This document shows, in pieces, positions 9,507 to 12,040 of a stretch of 64,000 bases of DNA. The stretch comes from Candidatus Bipolaricaulota bacterium (GTDB taxonomy: Bacteria > Bipolaricaulota > Bipolaricaulia > M55B111), in the NCBI GenBank assembly GCA_018335015.1, contig JAGXKX010000002.1, positions 316 to 64,315 on the forward strand, given 5' to 3'. A program made the position numbers and the translations under genes. The stretch's first letter is position 1; the number at the start of each line of letters is the position of its first letter. The notes beneath the pieces were generated by a model that was given only the letters and a program-made list of their open reading frames with translations, had not been told where the DNA came from and searched no databases.

Positions 9507-10487
9507 CTAGTATTGAGATTTGGTATCCGGTGCAGCAGTCTCGAGAATTTCTACGTTTCTTAGTCCTTCTTCTCCCGGCACTTCGGGATCACGATCCCCG
9601 GTTATAGATTCGACGAAGTCTCTTATTTCCCCCTCGTAGGGGTTTTTCTGAGAAAAATCTAAACTTTCTTCTTTTAAGATAATAGTACCTCCTCCATGGG
9701 GGCCCAGGGTATCTCGTGCTATCGCGGAGCCTTTCCTTCCGTATATCTTAAATTCGGGCTCCGATTCGAATAGAACCGAAGTAGTTAATTCGGCGGTGGC
9801 ACCGGACTCGAACTTTAGATTTACCATTGCTGTCTCGTCGTGGGGACTATTCCAGTAGCTGTTCGCTATTGTGCTATCTATCTCCACTACTTCGCCGCAG
9901 TCGGGAAGCATTGCCCATCGAATCAAATCCAGCCCGTGCGTGCCGATGCCCGCTAAACTCCACCACCTTCCCACGTCGTCGTAGGCTCTCCAATTAGAAT
10001 CGTCCTCGGCCTTAACTGACCACTGAACTCTGACGTGGTGCAGTTTTCCGAGGACTCCATCGTGAACTTTCCTAACTAATTTCCGGTGTCCTCTGTGCCA
10101 GCGCAGGTGGTAAGCCACACCTAGCTTTACTCCGTTGGACCTGCACGCTTCTAGCAAGACTTCTCCGCCTTCGGAACTCGATACCATAGGTTTTTCCATG
10201 AGTACGTGCTTTCCGGCTTGGGCTGCCTGTATTCCGTTTTTCTCGTGTAACCTGTCCGGGGTTGAAATCATTACTGCATCCAAATCAGGGTCTTTCAACA
10301 TCTCTCCGTAGTCGTCGTGGGCGGGGTTGTCGGCCCCGGCGTCATGTTTGGCGGCGAACTCTTTTGCCCTCTCCACCCTTCTGCTGGTCACCCTCCAGAG
10401 CCGCGCCCCTTCGACCTCGCTTATCGCGGGAGCCAAAGACCTGTCGGCGATATTTCCCGGCCCGATTAACCCGAAATTAATTGTCAT
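9507..10487 (-). CDS. Gfo/Idh/MocA family oxidoreductase
   Basis: 326-aa ORF with N-terminal GLIGPGNIADR Rossmann motif. It is co-oriented with xylA, 15 nt away. Confidence 0.9.
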   Translation of the reverse strand: MTINFGLIGPGNIADRSLAPAISEVEGARLWRVTSRRVERAKEFAAKHDAGADNPAHDDYGEMLKDPDLDAVMISTPDRLHEKNGIQAAQAGKHVLMEKPMVSSSEGGEVLLEACRSNGVKLGVAYHLRWHRGHRKLVRKVHDGVLGKLHHVRVQWSVKAEDDSNWRAYDDVGRWWSLAGIGTHGLDLIRWAMLPDCGEVVEIDSTIANSYWNSPHDETAMVNLKFESGATAELTTSVLFESEPEFKIYGRKGSAIARDTLGPHGGGTIILKEESLDFSQKNPYEGEIRDFVESITGDRDPEVPGEEGLRNVEILETAAPDTKSQY

Positions 10488-10656
10488 ATCTTCCGCCTCC
10501 AGTTCGTTAATTCTAGGGATTAATAGGAAGAGTGCAAAATTGGTATTTATACTTCAATCTCTCACAATCGAACAAAAGAGATACTTAATTGATGAACGTT
10601 AACTTTATCATTTTCCTACAGGCTCACTGCGCCGGCGATTGTTAAAAGAGGGTATT

Positions 10657-11053
10657 TATCGAGAGTATCGGCTGGGCAGGGGAGCTGGCCTCCTTTTACT
10701 ACTAACTTCTTGCTGACTGTTCAGGAAAATCCTATCGGAGGCCGAGCGGGCATGGTTCCATGCTTCCTCTGGAAGCATGGGGAGCGAGGCCGAGATCGGA
10801 AGCAGTGAATTCCACGCCGGGGAATTCACCTGCGGTTTTATCGAACAGTGAGCAAGAAGTTTTCCCTAAATTTAGAACCTAAAAGTCAAGAATATAATGA
10901 CAATTATCAACTCGGGCCGGAAGCCCGGAAGTTCTATCGAGCGTATCGGCCGGGCACGGGGACCCGGCCTGCTTTATTTTTCTAAAGGTGCCCGGCCTGC
11001 TTTGTATTGGTTAAAGGGTGGAACCGTGCCCGCTCGGCCTCCGATAGGATTTT
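10657..11053. repeat. cluster of nested inverted and direct repeats (second repeat family or structured RNA locus)
   Basis: 34-nt inverted repeat 10726-10759 / 11020-11053 (33/34). 19-nt inverted repeat 10704-10722 / 10843-10861 (18/19). Direct repeats TATCGAGnGTATCGGCnGGGCA... at 10657 and 10935. Perfect hairpins at 10758-10780 and 10805-10829. Confidence 0.85.
10948..10981 (+). terminator. plus-strand intrinsic-terminator-like hairpin with no upstream plus-strand gene
   Basis: GGCCGGG-CACGGGGA-CCCGGCC is followed by TGCTTTATTTTT. A related copy at 10670-10700 (GGCTGG...CTGGCC then TCCTTTTACT) closes only with G-U pairs on the plus-strand RNA. Confidence 0.45.
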
Positions 11054-11056
11054 GAC

Positions 11057-12040
11057 TTAGTCCGGGGTAAAGGGACAGGCGGCTATACAGGACGAGCAAT
11101 CGCTACCGTTCTCCAGCCAGAACTGGTAGCACCTGTAGTGATCCACGGGCCACCTGATAATACCCCTGTTGTTCGAGGGGCAAGCTGTTTCGATTTCGGG
11201 TTCAGTTCTTGTGGAAATGGCGTCCACTTCGCAGGCGCTGCTGCAGAGTTTGCAGCTATGACATTGGTCGAGCAGAGGAGAATCCACGGGCTCGTCCTCG
11301 ACCATTTCCATATCGGTGAATACTTTACAGATCTTGAGACAGGAACCGAGTTTGGAACTAACGAGAAGACCGTTTCTCCCCAGCCTTCCCAGCCCCGCGT
11401 CCATTGCTAGTGGTATGCTGAGAGCGCCGTCGTTGCCCATTGGAGCGGCTTTATAACCGAGGTGGCGTATGAACTCGCTCATACACGAGATAATGAATGC
11501 CATCTTCGAGTAGGAAACTGCTGAAGCTCTGGCGGCGGAAAATCCCGGCGATTCTCTAATGGTTTCGGGTTTAATCGGTACTATCATAACGACGGCGTAA
11601 TCGTAGTTTAGAAGATGGTCGAGCGGGTTTCCTTCGCGGTCCTTCGTATAGACCCATCTCGGATCAACCTTGGTAACACCGACTGAGCTGACTCCATAAG
11701 CCTTGGCGGCTTTCTTTGTCTCCTTTGTTAGAACCTCGGGGTCTTTACTGGGTGGGCTTAGTATGGGTTTGTCCATTATGTTTTTGTCCTTATCCGGCGT
11801 TTTTGGTTCAAATGCTTCCGTGAAGTAATCGTAAACTGACCAGCCCCCGATAGCCCGGGCCAGTTCAAATGAACTATAACCATCCTCTTTATTTAGTACT
11901 TTGTCGATCCGGTCGTAGGTTCCCTGCTGGTAAAAAGGCGCTTCTTCGTCGTTTTTTATTCTGCCAAATACGTTATCACGACGATCGAATCGGTTATATT
12001 TGTCTTCGTCGACTATCGATTTTGGGAACTGTTTCTTCAT
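11057..12040 (-). CDS. reductive dehalogenase (RdhA) superfamily protein, short cytoplasmic type
   Basis: The C-terminus carries two Fe-S motifs, CHSCKLCSSAC and CYQFWLENGSDCSSCIAACP (CxxCxxCxxxC plus Cx11CxxCxxxCP), as in RdhA and QueG-like enzymes. There is no twin-arginine signal and no adjacent anchor gene. Confidence 0.65.
   Translation of the reverse strand: MKKQFPKSIVDEDKYNRFDRRDNVFGRIKNDEEAPFYQQGTYDRIDKVLNKEDGYSSFELARAIGGWSVYDYFTEAFEPKTPDKDKNIMDKPILSPPSKDPEVLTKETKKAAKAYGVSSVGVTKVDPRWVYTKDREGNPLDHLLNYDYAVVMIVPIKPETIRESPGFSAARASAVSYSKMAFIISCMSEFIRHLGYKAAPMGNDGALSIPLAMDAGLGRLGRNGLLVSSKLGSCLKICKVFTDMEMVEDEPVDSPLLDQCHSCKLCSSACEVDAISTRTEPEIETACPSNNRGIIRWPVDHYRCYQFWLENGSDCSSCIAACPFTPD

Follow-up and report, generated by a model that had tools for sequence, protein, structure and literature searches.

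A pile-up of repeats in a Bipolaricaulota operon spacer contains an undescribed three-armed element that recurs in distant phyla

Main

Within the 64,000-nt stretch of Candidatus Bipolaricaulota DNA analysed here (the window), a dense knot of crossing repeats occupies positions 10657-11053. Taken as anatomy alone, this interval is very probably a mosaic of dispersed repeats inserted in a short operon spacer. One of its components, which we call S, is an undescribed element of ~150 bases with a fixed three-armed fold, present in many copies and in several distant phyla. The account as a whole, a repeat pile-up in which S is a non-autonomous element that folds as single-stranded DNA, is one we hold with slightly more conviction than doubt. 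What had looked like a knot of repeats becomes a readable history, that of an operon spacer invaded by three repeat families.

Results

Repeats of the interval recur throughout the genome

The repeats described in the original prediction are present, and most can be delimited more fully. Of the inverted repeats, the one of 34 nt can be lengthened to 40 nt (10726-10765 and 11014-11053, 93% complementary) and the one of 19 nt to 26 nt (10704-10729 and 10836-10861, 85%), and the shorter pair crosses the longer one as had been claimed. The direct repeat has an ungapped core at 10657-10682 and 10935-10960 (88%), and its third partial copy is found as a match between 10963-10980 and 10991-11008 (89%). 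A perfect 10-bp hairpin (10758-10767 with 10771-10780) and a second hairpin at 10805-10829 are also present. Comparing 10600-11100 with its own genome (1.96 Mb in 152 contigs) by BLAST, a check that had been proposed, returned 60 matches with a per-base depth of up to 22. Because all modules recur elsewhere in the same genome, the listed repeats are not due to chance. The interval is also, as had been stated, unrelated to the main element family of this DNA: the main MITE family of ~210 bp does not overlap it, and S is distinct from that family. The main MITE family itself has ~150 genome copies (self-BLAST depth 130-178) and occupies several sites in the window between 6037 and 50374.

We resolved the spacer and its borders into the following features, given in window coordinates.

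9507-10487, minus strand: GFO/IDH/MocA oxidoreductase ORF (Pfam)
10488-10620, minus strand: native upstream region of the oxidoreductase gene (relatives, promoter-like match)
10538-10510, minus strand: promoter-like TTTGCA-17-TAGAAT in this upstream region (consensus match)
10621-10700, minus strand: module B-L, comprising a GC hairpin unit of REP type and ~45 nt of extension (first copy of the predicted direct repeat)
10704-10861, plus strand: complete S element, 158 bp (full-length match to covariance model R1, 183.8 bits)
10704-10722 and 10843-10861, plus strand: P1 arms of S
10723-10757, plus strand: conserved junction of S
10758-10780, plus strand: P3 hairpin of S
10781-10801, plus strand: second conserved junction of S
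10802-10833, plus strand: HP2 hairpin of S
10834-10842, plus strand: third junction of S
10862-10910, no strand: A/T-rich unique spacer of 49 nt between the S pieces (BLAST depth 1 in the genome, self only)
11053-10911, minus strand: long-form S variant lacking its P1 arm, of which the 5' ~143 nt are present (local alignments, module matches)
11053-11013, minus strand: core module of the long-form piece
10991-11008 and 10941-10981, minus strand: REP-like unit of the long-form piece, partly duplicated, with a hairpin at 10948-10969
10932-10911, minus strand: first ~22 nt of the arm of insert X, where the long-form piece breaks off
11057-12040, minus strand: upstream operon gene for a 327-aa protein (ORF list), its stop codon 3 nt from the truncated element

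The hairpin unit of B-L, GGCTGGGCAGGGGAGCTGGCC, lies at 10670-10690 and belongs to the same unit family as the hairpin at 10948-10969, which was flagged as terminator-like. B-L aligns with positions 23810-23886 of contig C41, inside a long-form S element, and the truncated minus-strand piece (11053-10911) aligns with the first 130-150 nt of the long forms at C112:44640, C42:2290 and C41:24397(-). The third partial copy of the direct repeat is the duplicated part of the REP-like unit in this piece. The intact S copy at 10704-10861 has a fold energy of -77.7 kcal/mol (z = -6.2). In the A/T-rich spacer, the plus strand holds a promoter-like sequence at 10871-10898, a consensus match only, and the 327-aa protein encoded upstream matches a 4Fe-4S dicluster weakly, at 25 bits to Pfam Fer4_7, a score under the cut-off.

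The operon spacer is very probably an insertion hotspot: it holds an intact S, REP-type hairpin units and, in the opposite orientation, a long S variant that is truncated. The 19-nt inverted repeat is the closing stem P1 of the intact copy, and the direct repeats are REP hairpin units. The arms of the 34-nt inverted repeat, which had been raised as possible termini of an IS or MITE, are not element ends; they represent the inner conserved core of S, occurring twice in opposite orientation. The two inverted repeats cross because the two S copies sit tail to tail. The argument that a single MITE insertion cannot yield crossing pairs therefore holds, and the suggestion of overlapping insertions of a second element family was correct, with one whole and one truncated S copy plus REP-like units.

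The spacer is short in related genomes

The orthologous spacer measures 45-70 bp in four genomes of the genus (G013, G012, G009 and G001), compared with 569 bp here (G000) and ~790 bp in the closest relative, G008. Because the spacers of the four relatives are only 45-70 bp long, we read the interval as DNA inserted into an operon spacer. In G008 (locus L129, contig C152) the spacer, of which ~560 bases are masked as N, opens with an end of the main MITE family, CTCAGTTCTTTCACC, after which a long-form S begins. The last ~85 nt of 10488-10620 are common to this genome and G008, and more distant relatives carry a different short spacer. Within these ~85 nt lies the promoter-like TTTGCA-17-TAGAAT (10538-10510), and the oxidoreductase gene may have acquired its own promoter after the spacer was invaded.

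Direct repeats belong to a REP family with a RAYT gene

The direct repeats of the interval (the B modules) are REP elements, by membership and not by analogy. REP units here are dispersed, GC-rich imperfect palindromes of ~22-30 nt, and the unit GGCCGGGCACGGGGACCCGGCC with its variants accounts for ~13 BLAST matches in the genome. On contig C118, outside the window, a REP unit array adjoins a gene for a REP-associated tyrosine transposase (RAYT; positions 369-1100, locus L277) that matches NCBIfam model NF047646 with 112.9 bits against a cut-off of 80. GC-rich hairpin arrays flank this gene on one side, and a second repeat of ~45 nt, AGCAGCCCCCGGTCCC..GGCCTGCAAT, lies on both. In a passage of PMC3733652, REPs are described as having a conserved GTAG or CGTC tetranucleotide at one end. 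S resembles a REP or REPIN with its RAYT only in principle, in that a folded single strand would be recognised in trans; it has a branched fold and five times the size, and it flanks no Y1 gene.

S forms a covarying three-way junction

S is non-coding and ~150 nt long, and one of its strands folds into a three-way junction made up of a closing stem (P1), a long arm in which an interrupted helix (P2) leads to a hairpin (P3), and a side hairpin (HP2). Its junction sequences, a core of ~40 nt, are nearly invariant across phyla; the stems vary but stay paired, and P3 varies in length. Aligning 23 copies from 12 genomes of the genus gave a consensus fold of 50 pairs, 22 of which have changed on both sides, with 97.7% of cells paired. 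None of 500 shuffles reached the observed values, and slid controls were 33-52% paired. Across phyla (37 copies), 42 of the 50 pairs have changed on both sides and 94% are paired, compared with 61% in shuffled and 34-48% in slid controls, in alignments that were fitted to our own covariance model and with counts that treat copies as independent. All genomes compared for S are MAGs. In one subfamily of S, a base pair is gone from both sides of a helix.

The arms of P1 are always complementary but differ in sequence, with at least eight variants in 26 genus copies and arms that are unique in nearly every copy from other phyla. Insertion of the core into unrelated, pre-existing palindromes is ruled out as a source of this diversity, as the P1 variants within the genus are homologous and evolving in place. 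P3 loops are mostly triloops, 20 of 57 loops having the form C(GNA)G, and neither GNRA nor UNCG occurs among the 13 P3 tetraloops. The d(cGNAg) hairpin is an exceptionally stable DNA mini-hairpin. The earlier suggestion of a structured RNA with alternative folds thus fares unevenly: the 158-bp core is a conserved, covarying structure, the alternative pairing is not conserved, and loop types and gene context favour folded DNA over RNA.

The proposed Rfam search, run on the window in permissive mode, gave no match overlapping S, and Rfam 15 covariance models likewise found nothing at the long forms or at copies from other phyla (E up to 10 throughout). S had no match in plasmids and phages by BLAST or in viral contigs by exact scan. 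The literature we searched held nothing on the S core sequence, nor on CPR or Bipolaricaulota repeats matching S.

S is gained, lost and inverted at orthologous sites

This genome contains 20 S copies, all intergenic, five of them near full length besides 10704-10861. Orientation is unbiased, with 7 sense and 8 antisense copies, and many copies lie at contig ends; the true copy numbers therefore exceed our counts, and S breaks MAG assemblies. Of 19 genomes of the family, 16 gave covariance-model matches to S, between 1 and 18 apiece, in size classes of ~110, 158, 205-255 and 430-480 nt. The ~110-nt class is a deletion between two GAGGCCGAG repeats, and the larger classes have inserts in P3. 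Long forms, here 410-480 bp, have the same two ends as S, with the small P3 hairpin replaced by the ~300-nt insert X, which has inverted arms of its own. Hairpin variants tend to be common to the copies of one genome.

S is gained and lost at orthologous sites, and inversion takes place between its P1 arms. Both are seen in the spacer between mvhA, encoding the NiFe-hydrogenase large subunit, and an hdrC-like gene, which holds S or a derivative in 11 of 15 genus genomes. S is absent from this site in G013 and in genomes of the sister genus g2, where the spacer is 30 nt; G009 retains a remnant only and G005 half a copy. Species differ in the orientation of S at the site. G012 and G008 share their P1 arms, with the interior inverted between them, and G002, again with these arms, has X inside P3 as a nested insert. 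The interior of S is 86-92% identical between species at this locus, and the adjacent gene 42-72% at third codon positions.

S occurs in several distant phyla

Among 151 sampled genomes of this phylum, S was confined to two genera. Scanned for exact matches to the 21-nt core, species-representative genomes gave at least 113 loci. Among the matches listed, S-bearing MAGs are labelled Patescibacteria, Saganbacteria, Actinomycetota, Planctomycetes and WOR-3, with Saccharibacteria, Vogel-, Wolfe-, Magasanik-, Azam- and Liptonbacteria as the labels within Patescibacteria; these names are MAG labels, some of which are wrong, and several Bipolaricaulota MAGs are labelled Thermotogae. Genome sizes and neighbouring genes of the Patescibacteria-labelled MAGs are consistent with small CPR genomes. 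Also among the matches listed, the covariance model gave full-length matches of 55-146 bits at 40 of 46 such loci, and 14 S-bearing genomes of other phyla held 1-25 copies each, including 20 in one genome of 0.7 Mb. In a genome of 0.7 Mb (G163), five copies lie within 15 kb on contig C39 (L280), and three same-strand copies on contig C38 (L217) lie within 8 kb, each directly after a gene, in a layout like that of a cassette array. In Vogelbacteria, the P1 stems of two orthologous copies (L198 and L204) are distinguished by changes that are compensated or give wobble pairs. The exact 21-nt core is also found in three cultured actinobacteria, Mycobacterium rhizamassiliense (L173), Pseudarthrobacter sp. 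(L205) and Arthrobacter ginkgonis (L241), at loci where the covariance model detects no S; these 21-mers could be chance occurrences in high-GC DNA or an unrelated conserved sequence.

One strand of S is favoured and lies antisense at stop codons

We aligned P1 from 62 non-redundant copies without a wobble bonus and found 48 G·T or T·G pairs on the modelled strand compared with 4 A·C or C·A. Counting all S helices, again with each copy taken as independent, wobble pairs number 63 and A·C 15, and the Bipolaricaulota copies show a weak G·U excess (58 versus 36). Because the usual deamination biases would push the opposite way, we take selection to act on one folded strand, which for 10704-10861 is the plus strand of the window.

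Between co-directional genes, S is antisense in 19 of 24 cases, and for 15 of the 19 antisense copies the upstream stop codon lies -5 to +11 nt from the element. Wedged at the stop codon in this way, S therefore has no room for a dedicated promoter, and we found no conserved promoter motif 5' of P1. Its neighbours are housekeeping genes (aldolase, L3, SecY, DnaB and L7/L12). No protein family recurs near S, the largest cluster of neighbour proteins covering 3 of 54 loci. HP2 with its T-run was not scored as an intrinsic terminator in the window or at L217, and terminator polarity of HP2 is no more than an idea as the cause of the antisense bias.

Flanking direct repeats of at least 4 nt accompany 14 of 88 S copies, compared with 4.6 expected from shuffled flank pairs, and share neither a set length nor a motif. 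This genome yielded no parent IS; its core-module pairs are all at most 500 bp apart, and the incompleteness of the MAG weakens this absence. Repeats of more than 500 bp proved to be paralogous genes for sensors and sigma factors, which leaves no parent IS among multi-copy regions of that size. No transposase or recombinase could be tied to S. Y1 HUH genes occur in 12 of the 14 S-bearing genomes of other phyla and in 4 of 19 Bipolaricaulota family genomes; a Y1 HUH transposase was rejected as the partner of S, being never adjacent to it and uncorrelated with it within the genus.

Discussion

We propose that S is mobile or recombinogenic without being autonomous, and that its folded single-stranded DNA would serve a trans-acting enzyme as substrate, in the manner of REPs, IS200/IS605 ends and integron attC. 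P3 can carry nested inserts, such as the ~300-nt X that produces the long forms. We infer both the DNA nature of this substrate and its enzyme, and we regard this single-strand DNA mechanism as evenly poised. Three kinds of evidence point for DNA over RNA: the antisense packing of copies between a stop and a start codon without a promoter; the triloop-capped P3 with its C(GNA)G loops and no GNRA or UNCG; and the in-place inversions, nested inserts and repeat-mediated deletions. Counting against the proposal are the lack of a plasmid, phage or viral carrier that would explain spread between phyla, target-site duplications that are weakly enriched with no enzyme tied to S, and, in Bipolaricaulota, the weak G·U excess and the unbiased orientation.

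Rather tentatively, we suggest that S may define a new strand-specific class of folded nucleic acid in Patescibacteria, Actinomycetota, Planctomycetes, Saganbacteria and Bipolaricaulota, whether as a stop-codon-sited substrate of an unrecognised single-strand DNA enzyme system or as a widespread structured RNA with an invariant three-way-junction core. Very small CPR genomes, and genomes of several other phyla, carry S in multiple copies, and neither Rfam nor the literature we searched contains it. Were S a substrate in the form of single-strand DNA, an unrecognised enzyme system would be moving it, or recombining it, across phyla; were it RNA, it would represent a new and widespread class. 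S also marks gene 3' ends, which is relevant for annotation.

The foremost alternative, which we judge from sequence evidence to be unlikely though still a serious contender, is that S is the gene of a structured non-coding RNA transcribed from the strand with the G·U excess, a trans-acting or antisense regulator with copies that would be paralogues spread by transfer. Very strong covariation, a junction core invariant across phyla and the 12:1 wobble asymmetry in favour of one strand all agree with such an RNA, as does conservation at the orthologous mvhA-hdrC locus far above that of synonymous sites. The compensated or wobble changes in P1 of Vogelbacteria L198 and L204 fit as well, and in-place pairing with one-strand wobble in genomes with 1-2 copies would be expected of a functional RNA too. 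S further contains tandem G·A pairs flanking a GGCC helix, a common RNA motif. Set against an RNA gene, no conserved promoter lies 5' of P1, and copies are squeezed between a stop and the next start codon on the antisense strand. Copy number is 1-25 per genome, each copy with a different P1, and reaches 20 in a genome of 0.7 Mb. C(GNA)G triloops dominate where GNRA or UNCG tetraloops are absent, HP2 with the T-run was not scored as a terminator, and the interior flips between the arms at one locus.

It is improbable that S is an ordinary MITE-like palindrome with no strand role, its arms kept complementary by recombination between them or by template switching in quasi-palindromes and its core kept similar by recent spread and gene conversion. 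The inverted interior between identical arms at an orthologous site would suit such a palindrome, and so would the tendency of hairpin variants to be common within one genome and the weakness of the wobble asymmetry within the genus. An excess of 48 G·T over 4 A·C on one strand, however, is not what symmetric DNA correction would produce, and the deamination bias expected from replication or transcription has, we infer, the opposite sign. Conversion from other copies cannot maintain the copy-unique P1 of small genomes with 1-2 copies, and, whereas terminal inverted repeats bound by a transposase keep their sequence, the termini of S do not.

Slightly more improbable again is a cis element of operon mRNA recruited by the host, working as gene-strand RNA, for instance in processing, stabilisation or attenuation, a role that has been suggested for REP and ERIC. 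S does sit directly after the stop codons of highly expressed genes (L7/L12, L3, SecY and DnaB) and is kept in the mvhA-hdrC spacer of 11 of 15 genus genomes, and ERIC and other repeats are co-transcribed and change mRNA decay (PMC3184786). Yet 19 of 24 mRNAs would carry the reverse complement, in which the 48 wobbles become A·C mismatches; moreover, orientation flips at the same locus and no particular gene family is associated with S.

We find it scarcely credible that 10700-10985 is a regulatory RNA switching between two GCATGG/CCATGC pairings: GCATGG, CCATGC and GCATGG do occur at 10750-10780 as reported and both pairings are possible in this copy, but their mutual exclusion is an accident of it, for the alternative partner never covaries, the P3 hairpin stem of other copies becoming CCGCCC, CCACCC, CCAGCA or others while the upstream GGGCAyGG stays constant.

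Among known repeats, close counterparts are ERIC (IRU) sequences, imperfect palindromes of ~127 bp in Enterobacteriaceae, and bcr1 of the Bacillus cereus group, which is ~155 bp and cruciform-like with two stem-loops (PMC3184786). S resembles them as a non-coding, intergenic element of ~130-160 bp that often lies within operons, in either orientation, and forms long stem-loops. Wilson and Sharp (2006) are said to have attributed size variants of the ERIC and bcr1 type to internal insertions or deletions. S has no sequence relation to either, and differs in its three-way junction, near-invariant core of ~40 nt, freely varying termini, one-strand wobble excess and distribution over several phyla instead of one family.

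Classical bacterial MITEs (Correia, RUP, Nezha and others) are short, non-coding, multi-copy elements with inverted ends and a stable stem-loop (PMC3184786). S is likewise short (158 bp), non-coding, multi-copy and intergenic. MITE terminal repeats, however, are conserved in sequence and match the ends of a parent IS, whereas S termini differ in nearly every copy and no parent was found for S; MITEs also have clear target duplications, which in S are at best weakly enriched.

In integron attC sites, structure is conserved over stem sequence, one strand folds and the apical part varies in length. S shares these three properties, and it too sits immediately behind the preceding gene's stop codon, its folding strand antisense to that gene, in places with several copies after successive genes (three in 8 kb at L217). 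Unlike attC, S has a strongly conserved core and a side hairpin, and the genes that precede it are housekeeping genes and not cassettes. By eye, the P1 ends of S do not fit the attC boxes RYYYAAC and GTTRRRY, and no R/L box pattern is evident.

Genes for known RNAs were noted beside some of the sequences studied. A partial tmRNA match in this genome (L067:1849-1924, at ~82448-82523 of contig C96) lies ~270 nt from the S copy at C96:82022, and a tRNA sits inside the repeat-rich end of contig C33, just past the window (L066:2363-2451). In an Actinobacteria MAG, an S copy has a DUF3800-IX RNA (Rfam RF02968, 51 bits; L289:2267-2329, minus strand) ~85 nt upstream on its own strand.
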